Of a stretch of 64,000 nucleotides of DNA, positions 13,251-34,987 are shown piece by piece. Source of the DNA: Desulfobulbaceae bacterium UBA5121 (GTDB lineage Bacteria; Desulfobacterota; Desulfobulbia; Desulfobulbales; UBA5123); the NCBI GenBank assembly GCA_002414225.1, contig DHYV01000040.1, forward strand, positions 49,656-113,655, given 5' to 3'. The notes under the pieces were generated by a model. That model had not been told where the DNA came from, searched no databases, and saw nothing but the letters and a program-made list of their open reading frames with translations. Position numbers and translations under genes: made by a program. Each line of letters opens with the position of its first letter. Within the stretch, counting starts at the first letter, position 1.

Positions 13251-13277
13251 GCGCGGGCTGCGGCCGATGACGCCAAC

Positions 13278-13322
13278 CGTTCGGACCGCAGGCCGCAAGC
13301 CTTCGGTCCGAACGCTTTTTTT
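13278..13322 (+). terminator. rho-independent terminator after asd
   Basis: cgttcggaccg...cggtccgaacg stem with an inner aggc/gcct extension, followed by ttttttt (13316-13322). Confidence 0.8.
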
Positions 13323-13334
13323 GAGGTCCGCCTG

Positions 13335-13928
13335 GTGAGAATCATTGCTGGGACCGCCAGGGGACGGCGGCTGGCGACCCCGGCCCGCGGGGGGGCGGTG
13401 CAGACCATCCGTCCCACCGCCGACCGGGCGCGGGAGGCGCTGTTCAGCATCATCGCCCGCGAGGTGGCGGGTGCGGCGGTGGCCGATCTCTTTGCCGGCA
13501 CCGGCGCCCTGGGCCTTGAGGCATTGAGCCGCGGGGCCGCCTCGGCCCTCTTTGTCGACCGGCAGCGACAGGCCCTTGACCTTATCCGGGAGAACATCGA
13601 CCGTTGCGGCTTTGCCGACCGGGCCGCGGTGGTCCAGCGGGATCTGGGGCGGGGAATCGTCTTGCCGGCCGGAACCCTTCCCGCCGCAGGCTTTGCCCTG
13701 GTGTTTCTCGACCCGCCTTACGGGAAGGGGCTCGCCCAGAAGATCCTCGCCGAACTGGGGGGCACCGCCGGGGTGGTGGCCGTCGGCGGCCTGGTGGTCG
13801 CCGAAGAGATGCGGGGGGCCGTATTTGCCCAACACTACGGGCCGCTTTGCCTCCAGGAGCAGCGTTGCTACGGCGACACCGGCTTCTGGTTCTTCCGCGT
13901 CCGGCACCCCATGGGTCCGAATCCGTGA
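13335..13928 (+). CDS. rsmD: 16S rRNA (guanine966-N2)-methyltransferase
   Basis: GTG start. MRIIAGTARGRRL..PTADRAREALF...DLFAGTGALGLEALSRGA...FLDPPY, the RsmD motifs. Confidence 0.85.
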   Translation: MRIIAGTARGRRLATPARGGAVQTIRPTADRAREALFSIIAREVAGAAVADLFAGTGALGLEALSRGAASALFVDRQRQALDLIRENIDRCGFADRAAVVQRDLGRGIVLPAGTLPAAGFALVFLDPPYGKGLAQKILAELGGTAGVVAVGGLVVAEEMRGAVFAQHYGPLCLQEQRCYGDTGFWFFRVRHPMGPNP

Positions 13929-13994
13929 CCATGGGGTACGTGGCGCGGATCTGGCGCCCGGACGAACGCTGACGGATGCAGGAGGGAGAGATCC

Positions 13995-14528
13995 ATGACC
14001 GCCTACGAGCCCTTTGTGGCGCCCAAGACCAGTGAGCGGATTGCCGTCTATCCCGGCACTTTTGATCCCATCACCCGAGGCCACCTCGACATCATCCATC
14101 GTGCCCTCAGCCTCTTCGACCGGGTGATCGTGGCGGTGGGGATCAACGCCGCCAAGCAGCCGCTTTTTTCCCTGGAGGAGCGGATGGCGATGATCCGCGA
14201 CTGCTTTCCGGCCGACGAAAAGCGCATCGAGGTGGACGCGGTGACCGGCCTGCTGGTGGACTACGCCTACACCAAGGGGGCGCGGGCCATTATCCGGGGG
14301 TTGCGGGCGGTTTCCGACTTTGACTACGAGTTCCAGCTGGCGCTCATGAACCGGCGCATCGAGCGGGAGGTTGAAACCGTTTTTCTGATGACCGGCTTCC
14401 GCTGGATCTACATCAGTTCGAGCATTATCAAGGACGCGGCGCGGCACGGCGGCGACGTGGGCGGCCTGGTGCCGGACCATGTCTGTGAAAGGCTGCGGGA
14501 GCGGTTCATGATGCCCGGCAACGGTTGA
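13995..14528 (+). CDS. coaD: pantetheine-phosphate adenylyltransferase
   Basis: VYPGTFDPITRGHLD (T/HxGH motif) and ISSSIIKD. 177 aa. Confidence 0.9.
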   Translation: MTAYEPFVAPKTSERIAVYPGTFDPITRGHLDIIHRALSLFDRVIVAVGINAAKQPLFSLEERMAMIRDCFPADEKRIEVDAVTGLLVDYAYTKGARAIIRGLRAVSDFDYEFQLALMNRRIEREVETVFLMTGFRWIYISSSIIKDAARHGGDVGGLVPDHVCERLRERFMMPGNG

Positions 14529-14568
14529 AGAGGACCGGGGTGCGATGCGTTGCAGCGGGGGAAGGGAG

Positions 14569-14973
14569 ATGAACCGGCGTGAGGTGCTCGGCGAGGGCTG
14601 GAAATGGCTGCGCCTGGCCGTTGCCGCAGCGCTCCTCTACCCCCTGCTGCGTTTCCTCGGTTTCAAGGTGCCCCGGAAACCCCGCCGGGTGGAGGTGCAC
14701 AAGTCGCTCAAGGTCACCGGTTTCATCATCGAACACGAGTTCATCATCTTCGACGGGGCCAAGGGGCCCTGGGCCGTCTCCCGCAAGTGTACCCACCTGG
14801 GCTGCCGGCTCAACTACCGGGAAAAGGAGCACATCCTCCTCTGTCCCTGTCACCAGAGCCGTTTCTCCCCTCAGGGCCGGCGCCTGGCCGGCCCGGCACA
14901 GCGCAATCTTCCCACCTTTCCGGTGGCCGCCCTTCACGAAGGCGAGGACAAGGGCTACGTGGTAACCCTCTGA
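14569..14973 (+). CDS. Rieske [2Fe-2S] protein (small, membrane-anchored)
   Basis: CTHLGCRLNY and CPCHQSRF cluster-binding boxes. Start chosen at MNRREVLGEG (twin-Arg-like NRRE, RBS gggggaagggag). The track start at 14545 is also possible. Confidence 0.8.
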   Translation: MNRREVLGEGWKWLRLAVAAALLYPLLRFLGFKVPRKPRRVEVHKSLKVTGFIIEHEFIIFDGAKGPWAVSRKCTHLGCRLNYREKEHILLCPCHQSRFSPQGRRLAGPAQRNLPTFPVAALHEGEDKGYVVTL

Positions 14974-14983
14974 AAGGCGAACA

Positions 14984-15856
14984 ATGGCTGTTCTGTGGCG
15001 AGGCAAAGAGATCGATGTGAAGGCTGCCTTCAGCGGGGTGGCCTGGGGCGAGAAAAGCCTGGTGGCGCTCTACGTCTCGGTTCTCTCCGGCATCGTCGTC
15101 GCCCTCCAGTACAACCCGGCCGAGCCGCTCTATTCCGCCACCATCATGGATCTCCTGGTGCCCTTCGGCGCCTTCTGGCGGTCGCTCCACTTCTACTCAA
15201 GCCAGCTCTTCTTCCTGTTCATCGTCTGTCACCTGCTCGCCGTCCTTCTCGACCGCTTCCCGGTGACCATGTCCTTCAGGAAGTGGCTGCCGCTGGTCTG
15301 CTCGCTGCCGGTGGTGGTGCTGGTGCTTTTCACCGGTTATGTGCTGCGGGGGGATGTCACCGGCGAGATGGCCGGCTTCATCGCCGAAAATATCGTCCTC
15401 TCCGTGCCGGTGGCTGGCCGCTGGCTGAACAACCTGCTCTTTGCCATCAGCAGTGACGGCATGCAGCGGGTCTACGTCAACCACCTCATCGGCCTCGGCG
15501 TGCTCTGGGGGGTGCTCTCCTGGGACCACCTGCGCCGTTACCGGGTGTCGTGGCGCCAGCATGGTGCCCTGCTGGTGGCGTTGCTGGTCGCCTGTCTGGC
15601 GTTGACCGCGCCCATGGAAACCGAACACCTGGGGGTGTTCCGCATCGCCGGCCCCTGGTTCTTCCTCGGCGTTCAGGAACTGCTCCGTTATGTGCCGCCG
15701 GTCTGGGCCGGGGTGGTCTTTCCCCTTACCCTGGTCGTTGCCCTCTGCCTCCTCGGTTCGCCGGAGAGGCGGACCGCCGACCGGGCAGTGCGTTTTTCGC
15801 TGCTCTGGCTGGGGACGTATGCTATCCTTAGCCTGGTAATGATTCTCGGCCACTGA
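14984..15856 (+). CDS. cytochrome b (b6-like N-terminal part fused to a subunit-IV-like C-terminal part)
   Basis: Helix-B pair LHFYSSQLFFLFIVCH has 13 residues between the His. Helix-D pair RVYVNHLIGLGVLWGVLSWDH has 14 between. The C-terminal GPWFFLGVQELLRYVP aligns with the PEWY/Qo region. Confidence 0.75.
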   Translation: MAVLWRGKEIDVKAAFSGVAWGEKSLVALYVSVLSGIVVALQYNPAEPLYSATIMDLLVPFGAFWRSLHFYSSQLFFLFIVCHLLAVLLDRFPVTMSFRKWLPLVCSLPVVVLVLFTGYVLRGDVTGEMAGFIAENIVLSVPVAGRWLNNLLFAISSDGMQRVYVNHLIGLGVLWGVLSWDHLRRYRVSWRQHGALLVALLVACLALTAPMETEHLGVFRIAGPWFFLGVQELLRYVPPVWAGVVFPLTLVVALCLLGSPERRTADRAVRFSLLWLGTYAILSLVMILGH

Positions 15857-16031
15857 TGCCGGATACGCCCCAGTCCCGGGGCCACCGACCGTTTTCCCCG
15901 GGCAGTGGGTGAGCTGGAAGGAGAGTCCCGTCGGTGTCCGTTCCGCATTCCTTATACTCGTCTGCCCGAGACGCGTCCTGCGCCGGCCGTTGCCTTCTGG
16001 GCGGTGTGCGCTTCCTGCCTGGAGGCTTTCG

Positions 16032-17450
16032 ATGAAATTGGGATCTCTCTCCGGCCCACGCCTCTGCTTGTTGCTGCTGGTCCTGGTCCTGGCCTTTGGC
16101 GTCCGTTTTCTCTACCTCTCCGAGGCCGTCTATGCCAATCCCCTGAGAGGAGACGCGTCACAGTATTTCGCATCGGCCTACAACTTGTTTCACAACGGTG
16201 TCTACTCTTCGCAGATTTCCGGCCTGTCGAGTGACAAAGGTCTCCGGTCCGACGCATCCCGCGGCCCCGGGTATCCGTTTTTTCTGATGCCCTTTCTCAC
16301 CGTTTCGCAAGATCTGCCCGCATTTTTCAACAACGTTTTCCTCGTCCAGGCGGTCATCGGCACCTTGTCGGTGGGATTGACCTTTTGGCTGGGCTATATG
16401 ATCTTCGGCGCCCCCGGGGGGCTTTTCGCCGCCCTGCTCCTGGCGCTTACCCCCCAGGTGATCGCCCTGGAGGGGAACCTTCTTTCGGAAACCCTGTTCA
16501 CCTTTTCTCTGCTCGTTGCGGTCGTCGTGTTGGTATCGGAAATAAGGGAGGCGTCGATGGTCAAGCTTTTCGGCGCCGGTTTTTTCTTTGGCGTAGCCGC
16601 CTTGGTGCGTCTTTCGGCTCTGCCCATCGGCCCTTTTGTCGGCCTGTTCAGGCTGGCCAGGCATGCCAGCGGCAAGTCCCTGTTCCGTTGGGCCCGCTTC
16701 AGATGCTATCTGTTGTTCCTGGTCGGTTTCCTAACCGCCGTGGGGCCGTTTTTCGTCCGTAACACCGTGGTGCTGGGGAGCCCACTGCCCAAGAGTTCAA
16801 AGGCCTGGGAGAATTTCCTCATGGGCAGCTATCCTGATTACATTTACAAGAATGGGGGGACGTACGGCTACCCTTACCGCGATGACCCGGCGTATCCACG
16901 GATGTTCGAGGACAAGGACGAGGCGTGGCGGATCATCGGAGAGCGATTCCGGGCCGAGCCCTGGAAGTATCTGCGCTGGTATCTTTTGGGTAAGATTGTC
17001 GGTATGTGGCAATGGGATCAGGGGGTTGGCGGCACCGGCGATGTGTATGTTTTCCCCCTGGAGTCTTACCCCTTTCAGTCCGATGCGGTTCTTGCCGTTA
17101 TCCATTTGGTGATGCGAATCCTTCATGTGCCGCTTCTCCTTGCCGCCCTTGCCGGCGTGGTGTATTTCCTCCGCTCTCTCAGGAGTTCCTGGCGGCGTGA
17201 CCGCGAGGATGGCCCAGGTACGGCGCGCAGGCAGGCAATGCTCCTGTTTTTTGGAATGCTTCTTTTGCAGACCGTGCTCCTGATCATTCTCTTCCCGGTT
17301 CCTCGGCTCATGGTTCCCTTTACCCCCTACATGCTGCTCTTTGCCTTTTTCGGCCTGCAGCAGACAGGCCGGCTCCTTGGCGACTGGCGGTCGCTGCGGC
17401 GAGAACGGCGCCAACCTGTGTCGTGGCAGAGAAACGGCGCATTGCATTGA
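16032..17450 (+). CDS. glycosyltransferase family 39 (ArnT/PMT-like, polyprenyl-phosphate-sugar dependent), polytopic membrane protein
   Basis: Start at MKLGSLSGPRLCLLLLVLVLAFGVRFLYL. Many TM helices. The early RGDASQYF..A and GPGYPFF loop is typical of GT39/PMT_2 proteins. Confidence 0.7.
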   Translation: MKLGSLSGPRLCLLLLVLVLAFGVRFLYLSEAVYANPLRGDASQYFASAYNLFHNGVYSSQISGLSSDKGLRSDASRGPGYPFFLMPFLTVSQDLPAFFNNVFLVQAVIGTLSVGLTFWLGYMIFGAPGGLFAALLLALTPQVIALEGNLLSETLFTFSLLVAVVVLVSEIREASMVKLFGAGFFFGVAALVRLSALPIGPFVGLFRLARHASGKSLFRWARFRCYLLFLVGFLTAVGPFFVRNTVVLGSPLPKSSKAWENFLMGSYPDYIYKNGGTYGYPYRDDPAYPRMFEDKDEAWRIIGERFRAEPWKYLRWYLLGKIVGMWQWDQGVGGTGDVYVFPLESYPFQSDAVLAVIHLVMRILHVPLLLAALAGVVYFLRSLRSSWRRDREDGPGTARRQAMLLFFGMLLLQTVLLIILFPVPRLMVPFTPYMLLFAFFGLQQTGRLLGDWRSLRRERRQPVSWQRNGALH

Positions 17451-17465
17451 ATCGACTCGGAGTCC

Positions 17466-19031
17466 ATGATCGCGTCGCAGAACACCGTCGTCCTCGTGAA
17501 TCCCAATCTGGTGGTGCAACGAAGCGACCTCTTCACCACCGGCATCGTCTACATGCCCATCGGTCTTGCCTCGTTCGCGGCGGTGGTGCGGGAGGCAGGG
17601 TTTTCCTGCCAGGTGGTCGATGCCTTTGGCGAGGCTCCCAATCAGTGCTGGCGCGCGGACGGCTTCCTTTATCGCGGGCTCACCTTTGCCCAGGTGACCG
17701 AACGGATTAACGATGGGGTACTGGCGGTGTGCCTCTCGGCCATGAACCTCACCCATCACGGCTCCCTGGTCGGCCTGCTGCGGGCCATCCGTCAGGGCCG
17801 ACCGCGGGCCAGGCTGGTGGTGCTGGAGAACAGCCAGGCGGTGACCGCCTACAACCTCCATGCCGTGCGGCGGGAACTCTTCGCGGCCGGGGCGGACTAC
17901 ATTCTCCGTGGTGAACCGGAAGAGCGTGGCCTGGCGTTGTTCGCGGCCATGGCGGCGGGCCGGCCGGTGGCCATCCCGGGCGTGGAAGGGGGGGGCGGGC
18001 CGGCAGGCGAGGAGGGGAGCGAGACCTCGGCCGCGCCGCTCCCCAAGATCGGCGCTCTGGACCGTCTGCCCTTTCCGGCCTGGGAGTTCTTCCCGCTCGA
18101 GAACTACTGGCGGCTCGGCTACGCCCATGGGCCGCTTTCATCCCGCCGCTACCTGCCGCTCCTCACCTCGCGGGGCTGTCCTTACCGCTGCCGCTTCTGC
18201 GTGGTACCATCCACCAACGATGGCGCCTGGCGGGCCCGGTCGGCCAGTGACGTGGTGGACGAGATGGAGGTCGCCCTGCACCGCTTCGGGGTGACGGAGT
18301 TTCATGTCGAGGATCTCAACCCCACGGTGAGCGAGGAGCGCATCAAGAAACTCTGCCACGAGATCCTGCGGCGCGGGCTCAAGGTGGCGTTCAAGTTCTG
18401 CGCCGGCACCAAGATCGAAACCATCCGTTCCGAGGAAACCATCGAGCTGCTGGCCCGGGCGGGCTGCAGGTATCTCTCCATGTCGCCGGAGAGCGGCTCG
18501 GCAAGGGTGCTCGCCCTGATGCACAAGCCCTTTGACGCGGGTCACGCCCTGCGCATGCTCCGGGCCATGAATCGTGCCGGCATCCGTTCCCAGGCATGTT
18601 TCGTCCTCGGGTTTCCCGGAGAAACCGACGAAGACCGCTCCGAGACCGAGGCCATGGTCCACCAGCTGGTCCGAGAGGGGGTGGACGAGATCGCGCTCTT
18701 CGTGGCAAGCCCGGTTCCGGGTTCCGCCATTGCCGCCGAGTTTGCCGGCCAGTGCGATGACTGCTCGGCGCTCACCTTTTCGCCTGCCTGGCGGCAGGAC
18801 TATGCCAGGCTCAACGCTTTCCGCCTGGGGCTCTACCGGAAGTTTCTGGGCTGGAAACTTCGCTACCACTTCTTTTCCGTGCTGCGCCAGGCGGCGAATT
18901 TTCTCCGCCGTCGTTTCGAGACCAAGATGGAAATGGTACCCTTCCGCGCCCTCCATACCCTGCTGCTCGACCGCGGCATCATCGGCACTCGTCTCGGTGG
19001 TCAGCTGCCCCCAGGGGGCGGGGAGGGCTGA
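17466..19031 (+). CDS. B12-binding-domain radical SAM protein (class B)
   Basis: The N-terminal Rossmann-like VVLVNPN...YMPIGLASFAAVV resembles cobalamin-binding domains. Radical SAM motif LTSRGCPYRCRFC. 521 aa. Confidence 0.8.
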   Translation: MIASQNTVVLVNPNLVVQRSDLFTTGIVYMPIGLASFAAVVREAGFSCQVVDAFGEAPNQCWRADGFLYRGLTFAQVTERINDGVLAVCLSAMNLTHHGSLVGLLRAIRQGRPRARLVVLENSQAVTAYNLHAVRRELFAAGADYILRGEPEERGLALFAAMAAGRPVAIPGVEGGGGPAGEEGSETSAAPLPKIGALDRLPFPAWEFFPLENYWRLGYAHGPLSSRRYLPLLTSRGCPYRCRFCVVPSTNDGAWRARSASDVVDEMEVALHRFGVTEFHVEDLNPTVSEERIKKLCHEILRRGLKVAFKFCAGTKIETIRSEETIELLARAGCRYLSMSPESGSARVLALMHKPFDAGHALRMLRAMNRAGIRSQACFVLGFPGETDEDRSETEAMVHQLVREGVDEIALFVASPVPGSAIAAEFAGQCDDCSALTFSPAWRQDYARLNAFRLGLYRKFLGWKLRYHFFSVLRQAANFLRRRFETKMEMVPFRALHTLLLDRGIIGTRLGGQLPPGGGEG

Positions 19032-19975
19032 TGGCCGGGACTCCGCCGACCGCTCTTTTCGAGGAGCCCGCCTGCCCCGTCTGTGGCGGGCGGGAGTACC
19101 GGGTATTGCGGCCGCCATGCTACCCCGCGGGGCTCACCGAGGAGGATGTTCGCGCCGTCTATACCTCGTCGAGTGACGCCAAGCTCCAGGACCAGCTGGT
19201 CGGCTGCCGTGGCTGTGGGCTCGTTTATCTCTCGCCGCGGTTGAAGAGTGAGTTCATCCTCCGTGGCTATGGCGACAACGTCGATCCCACCTTCATTCGG
19301 CAGAACCCCTTCCGGATCAGAACCTTCACCAAGGCGTTGACCAGGCTGCGTCACCGGTTCGGCATCGAGCCGGGCCGTATTTCCGGCCGGGTGCTCGACA
19401 TCGGCTGTGCCGGCGGCGCCTTCCCCAAGGCCGCCGCCGACCTCGGTTTTCCGGTGACCGGTATCGAACCCAGCCGTTGGCTCTGTGAGCAGGGGCGCAT
19501 GGCCTACGGCCTTGATCTCCGCCCCGGGGTGCTTGAAGACTACTCCTGGCAGCCCGGCGAGTTCTCCCTGGTCACGCTATGGGACGTGGTGGAGCACCTC
19601 ACCGATCCGGCCGTGACCCTGCGGGCCATCCGGCCGATCCTGGCCGACGACGGTTATCTGGTGATCAACTATCCCGACATCAACAGCCTGGCGAGCCGGT
19701 TGCTGGGCAGCCGATGGCCCATGCTGCTCAACGTCCACCTCTTCTACTTCACCCGGCGGACCATCACCCTGTTTCTCGAAAAGCAAGGCTTTGCCGTGCT
19801 GGAGATCACCCCCTTCTTTCAGACCCTGGCCCTGGACTATGCCCTGGGACGGGCCGCGGCCTATTTCCCGCCGGTGCGGCTTTTGCAAAAGGTGGCGCTC
19901 TGGTTGGGCGATTCCAGCTTGCCCTTGACCTACAACATCGGCCAGAATCTGGTGGTGGCCAGGAAGAGGGTGTGA
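19031..19975 (+). CDS. class I SAM-dependent methyltransferase with N-terminal zinc ribbon
   Basis: CPVCGG...CRGCG cysteine pairs and SAM motif I VLDIGCAGGAF. Its start overlaps the upstream stop (ATGA). Confidence 0.8.
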   Translation: MAGTPPTALFEEPACPVCGGREYRVLRPPCYPAGLTEEDVRAVYTSSSDAKLQDQLVGCRGCGLVYLSPRLKSEFILRGYGDNVDPTFIRQNPFRIRTFTKALTRLRHRFGIEPGRISGRVLDIGCAGGAFPKAAADLGFPVTGIEPSRWLCEQGRMAYGLDLRPGVLEDYSWQPGEFSLVTLWDVVEHLTDPAVTLRAIRPILADDGYLVINYPDINSLASRLLGSRWPMLLNVHLFYFTRRTITLFLEKQGFAVLEITPFFQTLALDYALGRAAAYFPPVRLLQKVALWLGDSSLPLTYNIGQNLVVARKRV

Positions 19976-20631
19976 TGGAGGGGATCGCGGCGATCATCTT
20001 TGACATGGACGGCGTGCTGCTGCTCTCAAGCCGTATCCATGCCCGGGCATTTGCCCGAGTGTACCAGGAGCTGGGGGTAAAGGGGCCGCCCTACCGGGAG
20101 ATCGCCGGCATGCGTACCGACGAAGCCCTGCGCTACGTGCTGGCCCGACATGGCACGCCCGCCGGCGCCGGGCAGCTCGCCGCCCTGGTGGCCCGCAAGC
20201 GGGATCTGGCCCATGCGCTGCTCGCCAGCGAGCCGCCGCTGGCGCCGGACTGTCGCGCCCAGCTCGCCAGACTGCGCGGCCGTTTTCGCCTCGCCCTGGC
20301 CTCCTCGGCCTCGGAGCGCAACGTGGCACTCTTCCTTGCGGCAAGCGGGGCAGCCGAACTCTTTGACGTGGTCATCGCCGGTGACGCCGTGGCCAGGGCC
20401 AAGCCCGAGCCCGACATTTACCTGGCCGCCCTTAAGGCCCTGGGCTGTCCGCCCGCCGGGGCGCTGGTGGTGGAGGATGCGGTGAACGGCGTCGTCGCGG
20501 CCCGTCGGGCCGGCATACGGGTGGTGGGGATTTCCTCCACCCATGCCGCCGAGGAACTCCTTGCCGCCGGCGCCTGGCAGGTGGCTGCTTCCCTCGCGGA
20601 CCTGGTACGGTTGGTGTTGTCCCATGGCTAG
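19975..20631 (+). CDS. HAD-superfamily hydrolase (beta-phosphoglucomutase/phosphatase subfamily)
   Basis: Start at MEGIAAIIFDMDGVLL (DxD nucleophile motif), with VVEDAVNGVVAARRAG near the C-terminus. TGATG overlap with the upstream gene. Confidence 0.8.
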   Translation: MEGIAAIIFDMDGVLLLSSRIHARAFARVYQELGVKGPPYREIAGMRTDEALRYVLARHGTPAGAGQLAALVARKRDLAHALLASEPPLAPDCRAQLARLRGRFRLALASSASERNVALFLAASGAAELFDVVIAGDAVARAKPEPDIYLAALKALGCPPAGALVVEDAVNGVVAARRAGIRVVGISSTHAAEELLAAGAWQVAASLADLVRLVLSHG

Positions 20632-21424
20632 AATTATTCCCATCACGCAGCTGCAGGGCGGTTGTTTCGCCCCCGACCCGTGCCGATGGACTGCGGTGAT
20701 CCCGGCCGCCGGCCGGGGGAGCCGGCTCGGCTACCGCCACCCCAAGATCCTCTATCCCGTGGCGGGCCGGCCGATTCTGGACTGGCTGGTGGAGCTGCTC
20801 TCGCCGTTTTGCTCGCGCCTGGTCTTTGTCGTCTCCCCGGAGGGCAGGGAACAGGTAGCGGCCCACCTTGAACGGCTCGGCACCGGGGTCTGCCTGTTTC
20901 TCACCCAGGAGGAGCCCACCGGCATGGGGGACGCGGTGCTGCTCGCCGAGGCTGCGGTCACCACCCCCAACACCCTGGTGATCTGGGGCGACCAGGTGGG
21001 CATCGCCCAGGCCACCGTTCTCGCCTGCATGAAGGCCCATGCGCGCTCCCCGGCGCCGCTGCTGACCCTGCCGACGGTGATCAGGGAGCGGCCGTACATC
21101 AGTATCGAGAGGGACGGGGAGGGCAGGATCACCCGTATCGGCCAGCGCCGGGAGGAGGCGATCCCCCTTGCCCGCGGAGAAAACGACTGCGGCCTCTTTT
21201 GTTTTGCCTCCCATGTCCTTTTTGCCGCCCTGCGAACGGCGAAGCGGGAGGGGCTGGGTGTTGGTGCCGCCACCGGCGAGTTCAACCTCCTGCCCATCAT
21301 TCCGATGCTTGACGGCGAAGAGGGGCGGGTGATCACCGTGCGCCTCGCCAACCATGAGGAGGCCATCGGGGTCAACACTCAGGAAGACGCGCAACGGCTC
21401 GCGGAACTGTTAGGGAAGAGATAA
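20624..21424 (+). CDS. nucleotidyltransferase (NTP_transferase fold; sugar-/acid-phosphate nucleotidylyltransferase)
   Basis: Start at MARIIPI. Signature VIPAAGRGSRLG. 266 aa. Overlaps the HAD gene by 8 nt. Confidence 0.75.
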   Translation: MARIIPITQLQGGCFAPDPCRWTAVIPAAGRGSRLGYRHPKILYPVAGRPILDWLVELLSPFCSRLVFVVSPEGREQVAAHLERLGTGVCLFLTQEEPTGMGDAVLLAEAAVTTPNTLVIWGDQVGIAQATVLACMKAHARSPAPLLTLPTVIRERPYISIERDGEGRITRIGQRREEAIPLARGENDCGLFCFASHVLFAALRTAKREGLGVGAATGEFNLLPIIPMLDGEEGRVITVRLANHEEAIGVNTQEDAQRLAELLGKR

Positions 21425-23418
21425 TGGCTGCCGAAAGCTTGAAAGTAGTGGTTTTTTCCGGGGGGAGGGGTACCGGCGAGATCTGTCACGCCCTGCTCAA
21501 ACATCCTCAGATCTCACTCACCGTCCTGGTCAACGCCTATGACGATGGGCTTTCGACCGGGCGCTTGCGGGCCTTTATCCCCGGCATGCTGGGGCCTTCG
21601 GACGTCCGCAAGAACATCGCCCGGTTCATGGAATGCGCCGACAGCTGCCAGCGAGCCTTGCAGCGGCTGGTGGAGTACCGCCTTCCCGACCCCTTTACCT
21701 ATGATCAGGGGCTGGCAATTCTCGAGGCCATGGTCCGCAACCGTCCGCCCGAGCTGGCACCGCTCACCGAGTGGTACCGCGAACTCAACTTCCGTCAATT
21801 CGAGGCCATGGCCGGCTACGCCAGGGCCTTTCTGGACTATGCCGGCGAGCGGGCGGCCGCCGGCACGCGGTTCGACTTCGCCGACTGCTCCATCGGCAAC
21901 ATCCTCTTCTCGGGCTGCTACCTCGCCTGCGGCCAGGACTTCAACCGCACCGTGGCGGCGTTCAGCGCCTTCTGTCGCAGCCGGGCCCGGGTGCTCAACA
22001 TCACCTGCGGGGAAAATCTGGTCTTGGTGGGTCTCAAGGAGGGAGGGCAGATCCTCGCCAACGAGGCGGAACTGGTTTCACCGCAGGACTTCTCGCAGGT
22101 CAACGATATCTATCTCCTGGCGCGTTACCTCTCCAAAGAGGAACTGGCCCGGCTCCGCGAGGCCGAGTCCTGCGCGGCACGCGCTTCCTTCTTGGCGGGC
22201 CTGAGCGTGACCCCGCAGCTCGACGAGGCGGCCGGTGAGGCCCTGACCAGTGCCGACATCATCATCTACGGGCCCGGCACCCAGCACTCTTCCCTTTTCC
22301 CCTCGTATCTCACCCGAGGGGTGGCGGAGGCCATTGCCGGCAACGCCAACGCCGAGAAGATCTTCGTCTCCAATATCCAGAAGGATCATGAAATCCAGGG
22401 CGAAACCGCCAACAGCCTGATCCGCAAACTGCTCTTCTTTCTCAACCGCAAGGGCGAGGTGAGCTTTCCCCATCAGCGGCTGGTGACCACCTTTTTCCTC
22501 CAGTTCCCCAAGGATGGGAGCGCGGCGCCCGAGCGCTATGTGACCTTTGACCGGGACGAGTTTCCCTCGGTGATGGGCAAGGTGGTGCTGGCCGACTGGG
22601 AGGCGCGGCAGGGGGTGCATCTCGGCGGCCGGGTGCTCGACGAACTGCTCAGCCTCGTCAACCTGCGTTGGGAGCGGCAACTGCGGCCCTTCCACTACAT
22701 GGTTTCCATCGTGGTGCCGGCCTTGAACGAGGTGGCCACCGTTGCCGCGGTGTTGGAAGAACTGAAGCTCCTCGACTTCCAGCATCTCGGTATCGGCAAG
22801 GAGATTATCGTGGTGGACGGCGGCTCCGACGACGGCACCTACGAGGCGGCCACGGCGGTGCCGGACGTCAAGGTCTATCGGCTTGCCGGCCGGCGGGGAC
22901 GGGGGGCGGCGTTGCGCCATGGCGTCGACAAGGCGAGCGGCAACATCATTGCCTTTTTCCCGAGCGACGGCGAGTATGCGGTCGGCGATCTCCGGTCGGT
23001 GGTCGCCCCGGTGGTCAACAACGATTTCCCGGCGGTGTTCGGGAGCCGCGCCTTCAAGTGCGTGAGTCTCTCCGACCGGCTGCACACCATCTACCAGGGC
23101 AATCGCGTGGGCTATCTGTTGAGCAAGTACGGAGGCATGCTGATCAGCATCGTGGGCCTCCTGCTCTACAACCGCTATGTCAACGACGCCCTCACCGGGG
23201 TCAAGGCCTTTGACGCCGGGCTGCTGAAGGGGCTCAGGCTGCGCGCCACCGGGGTGGAGTTGGAAACCGAGCTGGTGGCCCGGCTCTCCCAGGCCGGGGT
23301 CTTTATTCTGGAGGTGCCGGTCGATTTCTATCCCCGGACCCGCCGGCAGGGGAAGAAGATCCGCGCCAAGGACGGTTTCGCGGCCCTGTGGAACCTGTTC
23401 CGGTGCCGCTTCAAGTGA
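21424..23418 (+). CDS. fusion protein: N-terminal CofD/YvcK-family (UPF0052) domain + C-terminal family-2 glycosyltransferase domain
   Basis: N-terminal VVFSGGRGTGEI, NAYDDGLSTGRLR and IIYGPGTQHSSLFPSYL match the three CofD/YvcK-family boxes. C-terminal VSIVVPALNE, IIVVDGGSDDGT and FFPSDGEY are GT2 motifs. TAATG overlap with the upstream gene. Confidence 0.75.
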   Translation: MAAESLKVVVFSGGRGTGEICHALLKHPQISLTVLVNAYDDGLSTGRLRAFIPGMLGPSDVRKNIARFMECADSCQRALQRLVEYRLPDPFTYDQGLAILEAMVRNRPPELAPLTEWYRELNFRQFEAMAGYARAFLDYAGERAAAGTRFDFADCSIGNILFSGCYLACGQDFNRTVAAFSAFCRSRARVLNITCGENLVLVGLKEGGQILANEAELVSPQDFSQVNDIYLLARYLSKEELARLREAESCAARASFLAGLSVTPQLDEAAGEALTSADIIIYGPGTQHSSLFPSYLTRGVAEAIAGNANAEKIFVSNIQKDHEIQGETANSLIRKLLFFLNRKGEVSFPHQRLVTTFFLQFPKDGSAAPERYVTFDRDEFPSVMGKVVLADWEARQGVHLGGRVLDELLSLVNLRWERQLRPFHYMVSIVVPALNEVATVAAVLEELKLLDFQHLGIGKEIIVVDGGSDDGTYEAATAVPDVKVYRLAGRRGRGAALRHGVDKASGNIIAFFPSDGEYAVGDLRSVVAPVVNNDFPAVFGSRAFKCVSLSDRLHTIYQGNRVGYLLSKYGGMLISIVGLLLYNRYVNDALTGVKAFDAGLLKGLRLRATGVELETELVARLSQAGVFILEVPVDFYPRTRRQGKKIRAKDGFAALWNLFRCRFK

Positions 23419-23435
23419 GAGAGGAGAGGAAGAGG

Positions 23436-24161
23436 ATGGCCAAGATCTCCATCGTGATTCCGGCGTATAACGAAGAGGGCTTCATCGGCCGGCTCCTGGC
23501 GCGGATCAACCAGGTTGATACCGAGGGAGCGGGCTTTGCGAAGGAGGTCATCGTGGTGGATGACGGTTCCACCGACGCCACGGCCGCCATCGTCGCGGAC
23601 TTTGGCGGCGTGACCCTGATCCGTCAGGCGAACCGGGGCAAGGGGGCGGCGGTTCAGCGCGGGGTCAGCGAGGCCACCGGTGACTTCATCCTGGTGCAGG
23701 ACGCCGACCTTGAATACGATCCCATGGACTACCTGCCCCTGCTCAAGATCCTGGCGGCGAGTGAGGCGCCGGTAGCGGTGTACGGCAGCCGTATCCTGGG
23801 GCAGCTCCGGGACCGGGGCTGGTCGCTGCTGCCGGGGCGTCACCCCCGGCAGGGCTTCGGTCCCTATGTGGCCGGGCTGCTGCTGACCCTCTGGACCTTT
23901 TTTCTCTACGGTCGTTGGATCTCCGATACCCTTACCGCCTACAAGATCTATCCCACGTCGCTGTTGAAAAGCTTCAGGGTCAAGACCAGCGGCTTTGAAA
24001 CCGACCACGAACTTACCGCCAAGCTCATCCGCGCCGGGGTGCGGATCCGCGAGGTTCCCATTCGCTATGAGCCGCGCAGCGCGGCGGAAGGGAAGAAGAT
24101 CGGCGCCAGGGACGGCTTTGTCGCCGTGTGGACCCTGTTGCGGTTCCGTTTCCGATCGTAA
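23436..24161 (+). CDS. family-2 glycosyltransferase (polyprenyl-phosphate hexose synthase-like, soluble/peripheral)
   Basis: MAKISIVIPAYNEE, VIVVDDGSTD and VQDADLEYDP (DxD). 241 aa. RBS gagaggagaggaagagg. Confidence 0.8.
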   Translation: MAKISIVIPAYNEEGFIGRLLARINQVDTEGAGFAKEVIVVDDGSTDATAAIVADFGGVTLIRQANRGKGAAVQRGVSEATGDFILVQDADLEYDPMDYLPLLKILAASEAPVAVYGSRILGQLRDRGWSLLPGRHPRQGFGPYVAGLLLTLWTFFLYGRWISDTLTAYKIYPTSLLKSFRVKTSGFETDHELTAKLIRAGVRIREVPIRYEPRSAAEGKKIGARDGFVAVWTLLRFRFRS

Positions 24162-24203
24162 GTGCACGGACCGTTCGCCGTGGCCCCGCGGGGGAAGCGG
24201 TTT

Positions 24204-25631
24204 CTAGGCAGCGGGGCCTGCCACCGGCAGGAAGAGGGTGAAGGTGGAGCCGACGCCAGGAGTGCTTTCCACCTCGGTGCGGCCGCCGTGGGAGTGGGTC
24301 ACCGCCTCGACCAGGCTCAATCCCAGCCCCAGGCCGCGCTGACTGCGGCTCCGGTCGCCGCGGTAGAGCCGATCGAAGATGTGGGGCAGATCCTGTTCGG
24401 CGATGCCGGCGCCGTTATCGCTGACCTCGACGGCGATCTCCTCCTCCTGCCGCCGGGCGGTGACCGAAACCTGGCCGCCGACCGGGGTGTACTTGATGGC
24501 GTTGTCGAGGAGGTTGGCGACGACCTGGCGCATCCGGTCGCTGTCCGCCCTCACGGAGAGCGTCGGCGGCACCTGGCAGAGAACGGTGATCTCCTTGTCG
24601 TCCGCCACGTACTGGTAGAGATCCACCACCTCGTTCAACAGTTCCGCCACGTCAATCTCCTTGATCCGCAGCCGCATCACCCCTGTCTCCGCCTCGGAGA
24701 TGTCCATCAGGGTCGAGAGCATGGTGGTGAGCCGCTCCGACTCCTCGCCACAGTCCATCAGCGCCTCACGCAGGGCCTCGGGGTCGGACTCGGCCTGCAG
24801 GGCGGTTTCGATGGTCGCCCGCAGCCGGGTTGCCGGGGTGCGCAGGTCATGGGCAACGTTGTCCAGGGCGTCACGCATGCCGGTGATCAGGCTGCTGATT
24901 TTCTCCAGCATGCCGTTGAAGAGATGGACGAGGTCGTTTAATTCGTCGCCGGTGCGCGGGTCCGGCACCCGGGCGTCCAGCCGGCCGGTGTCGATGCTCC
25001 GTACGGTGTGGATCAGTTCGCGGATGGGGCGCAAGGCCCTGGAGGCGAGGAAAAAACCGCCACAGAAACCGAAGATGACCGCCGGCAGCAGGATGAAGGC
25101 AAATTTTTTGCGAAAGTTAGCCCGGTGCCGTTCACGGAGGGCGGCATCCTTGCCTACCTGGAGGATGATGCCGCCGGGCAGCACGCGGCTGGCGAACTCC
25201 GCGCCCTGCACCCGGTCCGTGGCCGGCAGTTCTCCCCAGGAAACGGCCCCGGGCTCCAGACTGGTGGCCAAGTCGAAGTGGATGACGTCGGCGCGTTCCC
25301 AGCCCAGCGGCAGGGTCAGCACCAGGGTGTTGCCCCTGTGATTGAGAACCCGCACGATGAACCCGTTGTGGTGATTGCTCAACTCCTCCTGATGGATGGC
25401 GGCGATCAGTGCCGCCTCCCCTAGCTGCTCGCCTTGGAGGCTGTACTCCTGGAGTTTTGCCAGGACGATGTCACGGTCTTCTTCGAGAAAGGTCAAGCGA
25501 AGCGGAATGAAGACCAGGGCGAAGAGAACCACGGCGCTCGAGATGAAGACCGAAGAGTACCAGAGGGCGAGCCGGAAATTGAGGGAACGCAGCAGGCGTT
25601 TAATCGGCCTTGATGACATAGCCAACGCCAC
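24204..25631 (-). CDS. sensor histidine kinase (CusS/heavy-metal-sensor-like: 2 TM, HAMP, HisKA, HATPase_c)
   Basis: H-box NVAHDLRTPATRL, LLDNAIKYTP, SDNGAGI and GLGLGLSLV. Overlaps the upstream regulator gene. Confidence 0.85.
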   Translation of the reverse strand: MALAMSSRPIKRLLRSLNFRLALWYSSVFISSAVVLFALVFIPLRLTFLEEDRDIVLAKLQEYSLQGEQLGEAALIAAIHQEELSNHHNGFIVRVLNHRGNTLVLTLPLGWERADVIHFDLATSLEPGAVSWGELPATDRVQGAEFASRVLPGGIILQVGKDAALRERHRANFRKKFAFILLPAVIFGFCGGFFLASRALRPIRELIHTVRSIDTGRLDARVPDPRTGDELNDLVHLFNGMLEKISSLITGMRDALDNVAHDLRTPATRLRATIETALQAESDPEALREALMDCGEESERLTTMLSTLMDISEAETGVMRLRIKEIDVAELLNEVVDLYQYVADDKEITVLCQVPPTLSVRADSDRMRQVVANLLDNAIKYTPVGGQVSVTARRQEEEIAVEVSDNGAGIAEQDLPHIFDRLYRGDRSRSQRGLGLGLSLVEAVTHSHGGRTEVESTPGVGSTFTLFLPVAGPAA

Positions 25632-26274
25632 GGATGGTACGGATCAGTTTATGGTCGTAGTTGCGGTCGATCTTGTTGCGCAGCCGGCAGACCAGGACGT
25701 CCATGACGTTGGTCTGCGGCGTGAAGTTGTAGTGCCAGACATGTTCGATGATCATCGCCTTGGAAAGCACCCGGCCCTGGTTGCGCATCAGGTAGGCGAG
25801 CAGGGCGAATTCCCTGGGCTGCAGGTCGATGGGCTGGCCGTCGCGGGTCACCTCGCGCTTGAGGATGTCGAGCGCGAGGTCGCCGACGGTGAGGGTGGTT
25901 GCCTCGCCGCTTTTGGCAGACCGGCGGATGAGCGCCTGGACCCTGGCCAGGAGTTCGGGAAACGAAAAGGGTTTGACCAGGTAGTCGTCGCCGCCCGCCT
26001 GGAGGCCCTTGACCCGGTCTTCCACCGAGCGCTTGGCGCTCAGGATGATCACCGGCGTGTCGACGTGCCGCCGCCGCAGCTCGTCGAGCAGGGCGAGGCC
26101 GTCGAGTCCGGGGAGCATGATGTCGAGAATTGCCGCGTCATAGGGGGCCTGCAGGGCGAGTTGCAGCCCCTTGGGGCCGTTGTCTGCCTGATGCACGGTA
26201 TAGCCTTCCTGTCTGAAACCGGTGGCGATGTATGAGGCGATCTTGATGTCGTCCTCCACTACGAGAATGTTCAT
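25600..26274 (-). CDS. OmpR-family response regulator (CusR-like)
   Basis: MNILVVEDD, ILDIMLPGLDG and the winged-helix C-terminus IRTIRGVGYVIK. 224 aa. Confidence 0.9.
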   Translation of the reverse strand: MNILVVEDDIKIASYIATGFRQEGYTVHQADNGPKGLQLALQAPYDAAILDIMLPGLDGLALLDELRRRHVDTPVIILSAKRSVEDRVKGLQAGGDDYLVKPFSFPELLARVQALIRRSAKSGEATTLTVGDLALDILKREVTRDGQPIDLQPREFALLAYLMRNQGRVLSKAMIIEHVWHYNFTPQTNVMDVLVCRLRNKIDRNYDHKLIRTIRGVGYVIKAD

Positions 26275-26523
26275 GGGGATCTCCCGTTGGCGTCATGTCG
26301 GCAGAGATCGGGGATTGTCGGCGGCGCCTCAGCAGTGTATGGTGGTTGTTTTGCCGGACGGGGCGATCAACCCGTCACGGTCGTGGGCCTGTAAAGTGCG
26401 TGCGTTTCCTGCGGAATGTCCCTCCCAGGCATGTGGCGTGCTCCTTGCCCCGCTGCAGGTAGCCCTGCCAGGTGGGAACGGTTATCAAATGAAAAAACTA
26501 ACCTTATAAAATACGGTTGTTTC

Positions 26524-27276: not shown

Positions 27277-27284
27277 GGCGGGGG

Positions 27285-34393: not shown

Positions 34394-34987
34394 GTGGTGT
34401 GCCGTCCTCTAAAAAAGATATTTGCTCTGGGTAATCCCAGTTTCCCCGGATGTTATCTTGAGTTGCTCAAAAGAATAATGACGGAAGTGCGACCAAAAAG
34501 ACGCGGAACGCTCTCGGCGCTATCATGGTCTCGTCAAAAGTATTAACCCATAAATTTGGTGCGCGTTGATTTCGTCGCCAACAAGCGAACGCGGGGCCAG
34601 GCGACCGTTTGCACCGCAAACGCTGTTGGGTTGGGGCAACCGCGGCACTGTGTCACAACGGCTGTGATTATAGTCAATTTTGACGTATTTGGGAATGATA
34701 TGGCGCATCTTCTCCGCCAGACGGAACTGGAACGCCACCCCCTCCATCCAGCCTCTGAAGGAGGAGATGCCGTTTCTGGCGGAAAGTTCGGGAGGGTGCA
34801 GCCGATGGTGGTCGGGGGGGCGTGTCGGTCGATCTCAGGCTATCTTTAAGGATGTGAAAACATGTGGACAGTGGGGCGTCGGGTATGGTGAAAATTGGGT
34901 ATGTTGCCTGGAGTGGGGCCTTGATCGGCTCGATGTGATTCCATGTGGCTGTTCGTTTGCGAAAACCGTTCTTTAAGGAGGAAGGTT

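Follow-up and report, generated by a model that had tools for sequence, protein, structure and literature searches.

A modular gene cassette built around a YvcK-like::GT2 fusion in a Desulfobulbaceae genome: a candidate system for extracytoplasmic glycosylation

Seven open reading frames, G1 to G7, occupy the forward strand from position 16032 to 24161 of the window, the whole 64,000-nucleotide stretch of contig DHYV01000040.1 of Desulfobulbaceae bacterium UBA5121 that was analysed here. An earlier interpretation made from the letters alone (the sequence-only reading) had described seven translationally coupled genes at this position, and the open reading frames were recovered with these coordinates; their starts agree with those in three further assemblies of this organism (L001–L003), for which genes had been called independently. 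The seven genes represent the fullest version of a modular cassette. Its core, which is nearly constant, consists of a nucleotidyltransferase, a YvcK-like domain fused to a glycosyltransferase of family 2 (GT2), a second GT2 and, usually, a HAD-type protein. It is probable, in our judgement, that the block is a self-contained and horizontally mobile cassette for extracytoplasmic glycosylation via a polyprenyl-phosphate-linked sugar. Pfam confirmed each of the domains previously named (PMT_2, Radical_SAM, Methyltransf_23, HAD, NTP_transf_3, CofD with Glycos_transf_2, and a further Glycos_transf_2), and the features are as follows.

16032–17450, forward strand: G1, a 472-aa polytopic glycosyltransferase of GT-C fold (Pfam PMT_2; AlphaFold2 (AF2) model and Foldseek)
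17466–19031, forward strand: G2, a 521-aa radical SAM protein, probably of class B (cobalamin-dependent; Pfam, NCBIfam)
19031–19975, forward strand: G3, a 314-aa class I S-adenosylmethionine (SAM) methyltransferase with a zinc-ribbon-like N-terminus (Pfam Methyltransf_23)
19975–20631, forward strand: G4, a 218-aa HAD-IA hydrolase of the beta-phosphoglucomutase/sugar-phosphatase subfamily (Pfam, NCBIfam)
20624–21424, forward strand: G5, a 266-aa sugar-1-phosphate nucleotidyltransferase similar to the GlmU N-domain (Pfam, NCBIfam, PDB)
21424–22668, forward strand: G6, N-terminal domain (approximately residues 1–415), YvcK/GlmR (UPF0052)-type, CofD superfamily (Pfam, Foldseek)
22681–23418, forward strand: G6, C-terminal domain (approximately residues 420–664), GT2 of the DPMS/ArnC/GtrB type (Pfam, Foldseek)
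23436–24161, forward strand: G7, a 241-aa soluble GT2 (Glycos_transf_2, 2.4e-29)

The genes are joined by four start/stop overlaps and two gaps of at most 17 nt. The stop codon of G1 (TGA, 17448–17450) is followed after 15 nt by the ATG of G2 (17466). G2 and G3 share one nucleotide in the sequence TGATG (TGA 19029–19031, ATG 19031–19033), and the same overlap connects G3 to G4 (TGA 19973–19975, ATG 19975). G4 (TAG, 20629–20631) overlaps the start of G5 (ATG, 20624) by 8 nt, G5 and G6 overlap as TAATG (TAA 21422–21424, ATG 21424), and a purine-rich gap of 17 nt with GAGAGGAGAGGAAGAGG separates the end of G6 (TGA, 23416–23418) from the ATG of G7 (23436). Five of these six junctions had been described in the same way; that of G2 and G3 at 19031 had been given as ATGA. 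Purine-rich motifs resembling Shine-Dalgarno sequences lie upstream of G1, G2, G3, G4, G6 and G7. Because a consensus scan for promoters and terminators over 14400–24400 returned counts at shuffle or chance level and is uninformative on operon status, we infer the co-transcription of G1–G7 from their spacing. The G+C content of the window is about 64%, and its composition does not change abruptly at the block. Across the window, Rfam and tRNA searches returned one distant tRNA-His and no riboswitch, cobalamin riboswitches included, near the block.

A search with G6 returned 246 matching stretches in species-representative genomes; taxa were counted from the record titles of the best 80, and gene presence was counted at the 55 loci with enough flanking sequence, against which all seven window proteins were searched. 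Among these genomes the best relative of G6 (56% identity) belongs to a Myxococcales metagenome-assembled genome (MAG). In the protein database, at least 2,800 proteins match the G6 fusion over its full length, with identities of about 50%. The best 80 loci comprise 39 from Acidobacteriota (mostly Bryobacterales), 18 from Bdellovibrionota and relatives, 6 from Magnetococcales, 4 from Patescibacteria, 3 from Myxococcota and 3 from Alphaproteobacteria, with single Elusimicrobiota, Dependentiae, Margulisiibacteriota and Pseudomonadales bins and others; the cassette was also found in a Brocadiaceae genome (L090). The core of HAD protein, GlmU-like nucleotidyltransferase, YvcK/CofD-like::GT2 and small GT2 is co-linear in most of the 55 loci, and it recurs across these taxa at 45–56% identity. 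Flanking genes differ from genome to genome and are mutually unrelated. Since a co-linear core recurs across phyla amid unrelated flanks, the block is not a chance arrangement.

Gene content varies around this core. G7 is present at 54 of the 55 loci, G5 at 51, G4 at 49, G3 at 31 and G2 at 13; G5 lies immediately upstream of G6 at 46 loci and G7 immediately downstream at 42, and G2 never occurs without G3. G2 and G3 thus have the character of an optional module for tailoring, and one GT-C partner can be exchanged for another. The sequence-only reading had regarded both the methylation-capable enzymes and the CofD-like domain as unexplained additions; the former are optional, and the latter, as part of the YvcK-like::GT2 fusion, belongs to the core. 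Comparative genomics, which had been suggested with that reading, bore out the block as a unit beyond this organism: the full seven-gene order recurs in Bdellovibrionota (L006), Pseudobdellovibrionaceae (L018/L089) and a Pseudomonadales MAG (L009). At L089 the position of G1 is taken by a 409-aa gene that has no Pfam match and was recognised as a G1 homologue by the G1-family HMM search only. HAD::nucleotidyltransferase fusions occur at 10 loci (e.g. L025:8557–9969), and the protein P0063 (L089:10001–12799) is a nucleotidyltransferase::YvcK-like::GT2 triple fusion. Together these fusions tie the four domains into one functional unit.

The settings in which the cassette is found are equally diverse. 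In the Desulfobulbaceae window, and likewise in Magnetococcales and Elusimicrobiota, it sits amid housekeeping genes; in one Bryobacterales genome a five-gene YfhO–HAD–nucleotidyltransferase–G6–G7 unit lies amid pilus and ABC-transporter genes; other cassettes form part of polysaccharide loci that also encode GT4s, epimerases, Wzx, Wzy and AsnB. The frequent stand-alone location implies a donor supply of its own (HAD protein and nucleotidyltransferase) and an acceptor that the cell already makes. One copy, in Bryobacterales bacterium F-183, is carried by the 41-kb plasmid pF-183-2 (L064; AP025254.1), where the nucleotidyltransferase, G6, G7 and a G1-related membrane protein are accompanied by Wzy-like, AsnB-like and methyltransferase genes. 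This copy is consistent with horizontal spread, and the cassette is apparently mobile. A search with G6 returned no match in an annotated plasmid collection, which does not include the F-183 plasmid record.

In Firmicutes and mycobacteria, the integrity of the cell wall, the tolerance of antibiotics and virulence are influenced by YvcK/GlmR proteins, whose activity is argued over: they have been taken for UDP-sugar sensors, for activators of GlmS and for accessory uridyltransferases. The N-terminal domain of G6 matches Pfam CofD (1e-25), and the G6 profile matches the YvcK structures 2hzb, 2o2z and 2ppv at 1e-22. In the AF2 model of G6 (pLDDT 87, pTM 0.83), for which no membrane-embedded segment is predicted, this domain superimposes on YvcK structures with target-normalised TM-scores (TMt) of 0.75–0.85, compared with 0.61 for CofD (3c3d). 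As judged from the model, the domain is structurally of the YvcK/GlmR type and not CofD proper. The earlier description of G6 as a CofD-like::GT2 fusion therefore stands as to superfamily and fusion, and gives way as to fold. Against the NCBIfam model of YvcK (TIGR01826) the domain scores 70.6 bits with a cutoff of 196, the fold and motifs being present together with a helical insertion of about 70 residues (approximately residues 74–145) and the GT2 fusion. Its best CofD-type match, CofD_rel_GAK (TIGR04357), reaches 102.9 bits with a cutoff of 340, and G6 was not taken as the CofD-like protein of GAK systems. CofD proper, of the F420 pathway, was likewise set aside, as the fold is nearer to YvcK, G5 lacks a CofC match and no F420 genes were found in the window. 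The fold, all signature motifs, the DD pair and the link to UDP-sugars are features in common with YvcK/GlmR of Firmicutes and mycobacterial CuvA; by contrast, those proteins have neither the insertion nor the GT2, and G6 lies in a glycosylation cassette instead of a yvcJ–glmR–whiA operon.

All four superfamily motifs are invariant in an alignment of 24 sequences of roughly 50% identity that contains about 60 invariant positions. The invariant motif residues are G13, G14 and G16; Y39, D40, D41, G42, S44, T45, G46 and R49; G57, P58, S59, D60, R62, K63 and N64; and Y282, G283, P284, G285, T286 and Q287. Members of the YvcK family bind UDP-sugars and need the DD motif (PMC5482804; PMC10128056; PMC13046274), and the DD pair is required for GlmR function (PMC10128056, PMC13046274). 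The invariance of the motifs, including the DD pair, is therefore an argument that the YvcK-like domain is catalytic or, at the least, binds a ligand specifically; the domain is expected to handle a nucleotide-sugar. Its position between nucleotidyltransferase and GT2 in the triple fusion suggests that it deals with the nucleotide-activated donor on which the diverged GT2 draws. Possible roles are a CofD-type phosphotransfer, a GlmR-type nucleotidyl transfer, an anomeric phosphorylation upstream of the HAD protein, for which heptose and MurNAc-recycling pathways would be the models, and pure sensing; any single role that might be named for the domain is somewhat unlikely to be the correct one.

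A sensing role leads to a different account of the cassette, in which the YvcK-like domain is a non-catalytic UDP-sugar sensor that gates the fused GT2 within an otherwise ordinary GtrB/GtrC-type system having its own UDP-sugar supply. Such a role is in keeping with B. subtilis YvcK/GlmR, which binds UDP-GlcNAc and UDP-Glc and thereby regulates interactions with partners (PMC5482804; PMC7525490), with the doubts raised about catalysis in vivo in S. aureus (10.64898/2026.06.23.733835), and with the precedent of the proposed regulation of GlmS by GlmR. It accords less well with the approximately 60 positions, the GlmR-essential DD motif among them, that are invariant in the 24 sequences, although conservation alone is compatible with a sensor, or with the P0063 fusion, in which the order nucleotidyltransferase, YvcK-like domain, GT2 reads like a pathway. 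We consider this account very unlikely.

The C-terminal domain of G6 (Glycos_transf_2, 2e-21) and G7 are paralogues with 38% identity over their full length (E 3e-45), and neither G6 nor G7 contains transmembrane helices. The best PDB sequence matches of G7 are ArnC (1e-12) and DPMS (5e-12), and its best NCBIfam match is AglJ (96 bits), accompanied by Dol-P hexose transferase. The G6 domain matches ArnC, DPMS and GtrB by Foldseek at E 1e-10 and aligns with the DPMS of P. furiosus (PfDPMS, 5mlz) across the whole catalytic domain. Residues of both GT2 domains were mapped by alignment to PfDPMS with published residue roles: Asp91 and Gln93 for the metal, Arg117 for the lipid phosphate, Arg202 and Lys208 for the acceptor loop, Asp39 for the base and Asp89 for the sugar O2 (PMC5526996). 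The equivalents of the metal ligands (Asp91, and Gln93 as Glu), of Arg117, Arg202 and Lys208 are kept in both domains, and the G6 domain also keeps those of Glu12 and Ser135. The base-contacting Asp39 and sugar-contacting Asp89 are retained in G7 only, which displays canonical DDGS and DADLE motifs and an amphipathic C-terminal tail. In G6 they are replaced by Gly and Pro, respectively, both changes being invariant in the family, and the diverged donor-site motifs read DGGS and PSDGE. The shared metal and lipid-phosphate residues and the differing donor-site residues thus point to two polyprenyl-phosphate glycosyltransferases with different donors. By this alignment, both domains look like active enzymes, and G7 is proposed to be a polyprenyl-phosphate sugar synthase.

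The absence of transmembrane helices from G6 and G7 would also fit a mainly cytoplasmic, soluble pathway of the type formed by GpgS or MpgS and a phosphatase, in which a GT2 acts on, for example, 3-phosphoglycerate, the HAD protein dephosphorylates the intermediate, the product is a compatible solute or a primer, and G1 is unrelated or secondary. For both GT2 domains, GpgS and MpgS come in a second tier of matches, by sequence as well as by fold, and a glycosyltransferase paired with a HAD phosphatase is the classic two-step logic of solute synthesis. The match to GpgS, however, is limited to the nucleotide-binding part at the N-terminus, while the alignment with DPMS extends through the entire domain and takes in the acceptor loop. 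The cassette is persistently accompanied by polytopic GT-C-like proteins and GtrA, and the HAD protein is dispensable in 6 loci. The chance of a soluble pathway is accordingly very slim.

On the membrane side, G1 matches Pfam PMT_2 (E 7e-8; 33.3 bits with a cutoff of 26.1). A Foldseek search of the PDB with its AF2 model (pLDDT 81, pTM 0.84) returned GT-C proteins only, namely STT3, AglB and PglB at 1e-6 to 1e-3, ArnT at 5e-4 and Pmt4 at 2e-3; a PDB sequence search gave no match. The modelled protein consists almost continuously of transmembrane helices, with no MIR, large periplasmic or other soluble domain. D41 and Y45 are invariant in the first external loop, and a PGYP motif and LSETLF (E153) stand out in the alignment. 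Only ten sequence homologues of G1 were found, so the family is very divergent, and one of these (32% identity) stands alone in a Rhodocyclales genome that lacks the cassette, which means that the family is not cassette-specific. The previous label of GT39/ArnT-like transferase is upheld as regards the GT-C fold and PMT_2 but must be loosened to a generic PMT_2 protein, as identity with GT39 or ArnT is not borne out. In particular, a protein O-mannosyltransferase (GT39, PMT) was rejected: the PMT_2 core is present, the MIR-domain loop is absent and Pmt4 is a lower-ranked fold match. G1 is proposed as the periplasmic-face transferase that consumes the lipid-linked sugar.

At 57 loci, a large polytopic protein is encoded no more than 1.5 kb from the cassette. 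The 78 adjacent polytopic proteins include 13 PMT_2/PMT, 4 YfhO, 3 DUF6798 and 11 Wzx-type proteins, and many lack a Pfam family. An unnamed 493-aa family (A5), located directly 3' of G7 in seven Bryobacterales loci, is a G1 homologue by hhalign (96%). In 13 Bdellovibrionales and Patescibacteria loci, G7 is followed by GtrA and then by a 560-aa protein of about 10 transmembrane helices (A4; L053:13131–14840, L061:13127–14791, L063:13135–14802 and 10 more). The A4 family has an invariant GPDRxIHDP motif near the N-terminus, returned no Pfam match, no PDB match and no profile relation to G1, and may be a new family of GtrC-like transferases. The neighbouring GT-C-like proteins were too divergent to be united with G1 by iterative HMM search, profile–profile comparison linking A5 and not A4. 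The logic of a small GT2 paired with a GT-C protein, as put forward in the sequence-only reading, is supported by the ArnC, DPMS and GtrB matches, by the GT-C model of G1 and by the GtrA, PMT_2 and YfhO neighbours at other loci.

The fold matches of G1 raise the alternative of a lipid-monophosphate oligosaccharide route like the haloarchaeal Agl pathway, in which G7 would add the first sugar and the GT2 of G6 the second, G3 and G2 would methylate, and G1 would transfer the glycan en bloc to protein or lipid. In NCBIfam, both GT2 domains score highest against AglJ (G6, 87 bits; G7, 96 bits), models of AglF-type uridylyltransferases and Dol-P hexose transferases match as well, and STT3 and AglB are the best fold matches of G1. 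The component list is also alike, since AglF, AglJ, AglP and AglB are a uridylyltransferase, a DPMS-like GT2, a SAM methyltransferase for a glycan sugar and a GT-C protein, with AglJ and AglF among the best NCBIfam matches of the cassette; moreover, the route would account for two GT2 paralogues with differing donor-site residues. By contrast, every score is far under the family cutoff, the hosts are bacterial, and G1, with its 472 residues nearly all in transmembrane helices, lacks the periplasmic domain of oligosaccharyltransferases. The GT2 of G6 retains the lipid-phosphate-binding residues expected for direct action on polyprenyl phosphate, and partners such as GtrA, PMT_2 and YfhO typically go with monosaccharide donors. 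An Agl-like route is therefore judged quite improbable.

A lipid-diphosphate route was weighed in the same way. Here the YvcK/CofD-like domain would be a new initiating phosphoglycosyl transferase (C55-P + UDP-sugar to C55-PP-sugar + UMP, C55-P being undecaprenyl phosphate), both GT2 domains would extend the glycan, and G1 would act as ligase or oligosaccharyltransferase. The chemistry would parallel that of CofD, whose release of a nucleoside monophosphate from an NDP-activated donor is established F420 biochemistry; this counts for the route, as do the oligosaccharyltransferase-like fold of G1 and the presence of Wzx-type flippases (11) and Wzy_C (3) near some cassettes. Most neighbourhoods also lack a canonical initiating transferase, Glycos_transf_4 accounting for 1 of the 78 adjacent polytopic proteins, a count to which no systematic search for monotopic PglC/WbaP-type transferases was added. 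On the other side, the YvcK/CofD-like domain is nearer to soluble YvcK than to CofD, G6 has no predicted membrane-embedded segment, and the GT2 domains best match lipid-monophosphate enzymes. The route is, in our estimation, highly unlikely.

The two remaining core genes bear on donor supply, a function that had been attributed to them before and that is supported here. G4 matches Pfam HAD (1.5e-26) with the nucleophile motif DMDG and passes the generic HAD-IA models TIGR01509 (62.6 bits, cutoff 29.4) and TIGR01549 (34.9, cutoff 23.3). It stays under the cutoffs of TIGR02009 (110.9, cutoff 153.35) and of the beta-phosphoglucomutase (beta-PGM) model TIGR01990 (88, cutoff 189.4), and its nearest PDB entries are CbbY (1.5e-24) and beta-PGM (6e-21). 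With both models under cutoff and a CbbY phosphatase as nearest structure, beta-PGM proper was rejected, and the beta-PGM/CbbY-like G4 is proposed to be a sugar-phosphate mutase or phosphatase that feeds G5. G5 matches NTP_transf_3 (5e-18) and, over residues 24–261, GlmU models at up to 84 bits. Fifteen of its top 20 PDB matches are GlmU N-domains, the remainder being UTP-glucose-1-phosphate or UDP-GlcNAc pyrophosphorylases. Its alignment to GlmU keeps the AAGrGsRL...PK nucleotide signature (GxGxR...PK) and a base-contacting Gln, which we take to be the counterpart of Gln76 of E. coli GlmU. The N-domain match spans the full length of G5, and at 266 aa there is no acetyltransferase C-domain, so G5 is not GlmU proper.

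The order of these genes recalls CofC and CofD of F420 biosynthesis, where CofC uses GTP to activate a phospho-compound, which CofD then passes to an alcohol, releasing GMP. As in that pair, a nucleotidyltransferase gene directly precedes a CofD-superfamily gene and is sometimes fused to it, and CofC/CofD is by analogy a possible template for G5 and the N-terminal domain of G6. Unlike CofC, however, G5 is GlmU/IspD-like and has no CofC Pfam match, the G6 domain is nearer to YvcK, and no other F420 genes lie nearby.

Of the two methylation genes, G2 matches Pfam Radical_SAM (1e-22) with the cluster motif CPYRCRFC (CxxxCxxC). Its strongest NCBIfam matches are mostly B12-dependent radical SAM models, some spanning the N-terminal region and all far under cutoff, the best being the Sden_1168 P-methyltransferase at 121 bits with a cutoff of 575. 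The core motif and the resemblance to B12 families favour the class B assignment made previously, while the B12-binding Pfam is sub-threshold (22.1 bits, cutoff 32.1). The best PDB match is 9ccb (5.6e-14), followed by TsrM. Fom3, GenK and PhpK are cobalamin-dependent radical SAM methylases that act on activated small molecules or sugars, the substrate of Fom3 being CMP-activated. G2 resembles them in its probable class B architecture, in the CxxxCxxC motif and in its place beside a nucleotidyltransferase, and departs from them in the low family score and the sub-threshold B12 domain. G2 is proposed to be a C-methylase of the optional module. G3 was correctly described as a zinc-ribbon methyltransferase: it matches Methyltransf_23 (2e-25) and its translation contains two N-terminal CxxC pairs (CPVCGG...CRGCG). 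It has no specific NCBIfam match, and its PDB match is the generic methyltransferase 3cc8 only. Additional genes for B12-binding and for SPASM radical SAM proteins lie beside the cassette at L090:4997–9006, in the anammox Brocadiaceae genome, and at L004:14112–15671, which suggests further radical tailoring in some lineages.

The constant features, namely a nucleotidyltransferase of the UDP-sugar type, two DPMS/ArnC-like GT2s and a GT-C-like neighbour, with GtrA where a flippase is encoded, together form the signature of extracytoplasmic glycosylation from a polyprenyl-phosphate sugar. A general scheme is likely in which synthesis of the lipid-phosphate sugar takes place inside and a GT-C protein uses it outside; confidence in the specific chemistry of any step, including the nucleotide, the sugar and the acceptor, is low. 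In this scheme, G4 would turn a sugar phosphate of central metabolism into a sugar-1-phosphate, from which G5 would make a UDP-sugar with UTP. On the inner side of the membrane, G7 would load the sugar onto undecaprenyl phosphate. G6 would perform a second lipid-phosphate-linked step with a different donor, the fused YvcK-like domain supplying or processing this nucleotide-activated donor by CofD-type phosphotransfer or GlmR-type nucleotidyl transfer. Where present, G3 (O- or N-methylation) and G2 (cobalamin-dependent radical SAM C-methylation) would tailor the sugar. It would then be flipped, by GtrA at other loci and by some other protein here, and G1 would move it to an acceptor in the envelope.

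The closest logic is that of the three-component systems, such as GtrA/GtrB/GtrC of Shigella and Salmonella phages, CsbB/GtcA/YfhO of Firmicutes and the pentofuranose systems with a GT136 GT-C protein (PMC11127046). In these, a polyprenyl-phosphate monosaccharide is synthesised in the cytoplasm, a small flippase translocates it, and a GT-C protein adds the sugar to a finished glycan outside (for the pentofuranose systems, PMC11127046). G7 and the C-terminal domain of G6 are GtrB/DPMS-like, G1 is a GT-C protein, and GtrA, YfhO or PMT_2 adjoin the cassette elsewhere; at the window block the GT2 and GT-C components are present and the flippase is not. The cassette differs from these systems in having two GT2 paralogues, which lack transmembrane helices, the YvcK/CofD-like fusion, a dedicated HAD protein and GlmU-like nucleotidyltransferase, and the optional methyltransferase and B12 radical SAM protein. 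We class it as a variant of three-component glycosylation that is modular, widespread and so far uncharacterised; its new elements are the fusion of YvcK to GT2, the duplication of the GT2 and the module of B12 radical SAM protein and methyltransferase.

A similar division of labour exists in ArnC/ArnT (L-Ara4N modification of lipid A), Francisella FlmF/FlmK and mycobacterial PpgS/Rv3779, in which a GT2 loads undecaprenyl or decaprenyl phosphate and a GT-C protein of the PMT_2/ArnT type uses the product. By sequence, G7 finds its best PDB match in ArnC, and a two-component system and a PAP2 protein similar to lipid A phosphatase adjoin the block. Unlike the Arn system, the cassette has no sugar-tailoring enzymes of the ArnA/B/D type and occurs in Patescibacteria bins, and the adjacency of PAP2 and two-component genes is not conserved. 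The ArnC/ArnT pathway proper was rejected, as G7 scores 48.1 bits against PRK10714 (cutoff 529), no ArnT model matches G1 and the block contains no ArnA/B/D-like genes.

Several observations weigh against glycosylation by a polyprenyl-phosphate sugar as proposed here. No gene for a flippase (GtrA/GtcA, ArnE/F, MATE or Wzx) was found in the block and its surroundings (window 14545–28202), although known three-component systems sometimes encode the flippase elsewhere. Three-component systems need one GT2, which leaves the second paralogue unexplained, and G1 is closest in fold to oligosaccharyltransferases working with lipid-diphosphate donors. CbbY, the nearest structure of G4, is a bisphosphate phosphatase and not a mutase, and the HAD gene is absent from 6 of the 55 loci, so the HAD step is not obligatory. 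None of the seven proteins reaches a specificity-defining family threshold, and substrate assignments therefore rest on distant similarity. Finally, the uridyltransferase activity of YvcK/GlmR in vivo is disputed (10.64898/2026.06.23.733835).

The earlier statement that no characterised pathway has this composition holds within the libraries searched. Against NCBIfam the seven proteins reached no equivalog or named-subfamily cutoff, with passes limited to generic HAD-IA superfamily models, and no curated family or solved structure in these libraries covers the cassette. Source annotations of the homologues are generic ('YvcK family', 'CofD family', 'glycosyltransferase'), and full-text literature searches found no study of the cassette. 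The only related remark found concerns an unexplained island of Mycoplasma fermentans with a GT2 synthase, a CofD-family gene and an NDP-nucleotidyltransferase (PMC11658790). Two links to known glycans were considered and dropped: the Brocadiaceae genome has the cassette, but the paper on the methylated S-layer O-glycan of Kuenenia defines no biosynthetic genes, and no paper was found that ties genes to the mannosylated lipid A of Bdellovibrio.

The cassette is compact (5–7 genes) and stand-alone, and it probably specifies a chemically undescribed surface modification in mostly uncultured carriers, among them Acidobacteriota, predatory Bdellovibrionota, Magnetococcales, anammox bacteria and the Candidate Phyla Radiation (CPR). 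Cultured carriers include Fluviispira multicolorata, Bacteriovorax sp. BSW11_IV and Bryobacterales F-183. The fusion of a YvcK-type domain to a polyprenyl-phosphate GT2, beside and sometimes fused with a GlmU-like nucleotidyltransferase, provides an assayable hypothesis for the role of this fold. In its furthest form, the YvcK/CofD-like domain would be a true enzyme of lipid-linked glycan synthesis, and the full cassette would deliver a C-/O-methylated sugar to the envelope. The domain might then be a CofD-type phosphotransferase that installs a phosphodiester-linked group on a polyprenyl-phosphate sugar, or makes this sugar, or it might provide a missing anomeric kinase or nucleotidyl-exchange step that feeds the fused GT2. 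We regard this enzymatic extension as unlikely to hold in full. If true, it would give the YvcK/GlmR family its first defined pathway role and reveal an unrecognised envelope modification common to more than 10 bacterial phyla, Patescibacteria (CPR) bins included. The cobalamin-dependent radical SAM and methyltransferase module would be an unusual route to a methylated envelope sugar.

The genes on either side of the block are listed below.

14545–15856, forward strand: Rieske iron-sulfur protein (142 aa) and cytochrome b (290 aa), directly upstream of the block
24204–25619, reverse strand: sensor kinase, convergent to G7 (gene call and Pfam)
25600–26274, reverse strand: OmpR-type response regulator (gene call and Pfam)
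26524–27276, forward strand: PAP2 phosphatase, lipid A phosphatase-like (PAP2_lipid_A, 153.7 bits with a cutoff of 275)

The Rieske/cytochrome b pair ends 176 nt before the start of G1 and adjoins the block only in this organism; the best match of the 290-aa cytochrome b is the ExtP cytochrome of selenite/tellurite operons, below threshold. The end of G7 is separated by 42 nt from the convergent histidine kinase gene. The two-component and PAP2 genes, which adjoin the cassette in this organism (L001–L003) and at no other locus, hint at lipid A as acceptor here, or could reflect envelope-stress control of the block. The cassette is also present in bins of Patescibacteria, a lineage not expected to have lipopolysaccharide.

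Elsewhere in the window, the G+C content dips to 0.547 (compared with about 0.64) over 34001–36000, a region that adjoins a PhoH2-like helicase gene (35455–36774, reverse strand). Two reverse-strand open reading frames are much longer than their family matches: prfC (50723–53221, 832 aa) matches over residues 307–831 only, and that of an M3 oligoendopeptidase (59040–63308, 1422 aa) over residues 847–1419 only; either the starts are over-extended in G+C-rich DNA, or the N-terminal extensions are genuine. Long open reading frames also lie antisense to or overlap real genes, for example 12231–14480 (reverse), 16797–18128 (reverse) and 24162–24941 (forward), as is typical of DNA of high G+C content, and several of these are "conserved" across loci merely as shadows of real genes (clusters 3, 6, 7 and 10).

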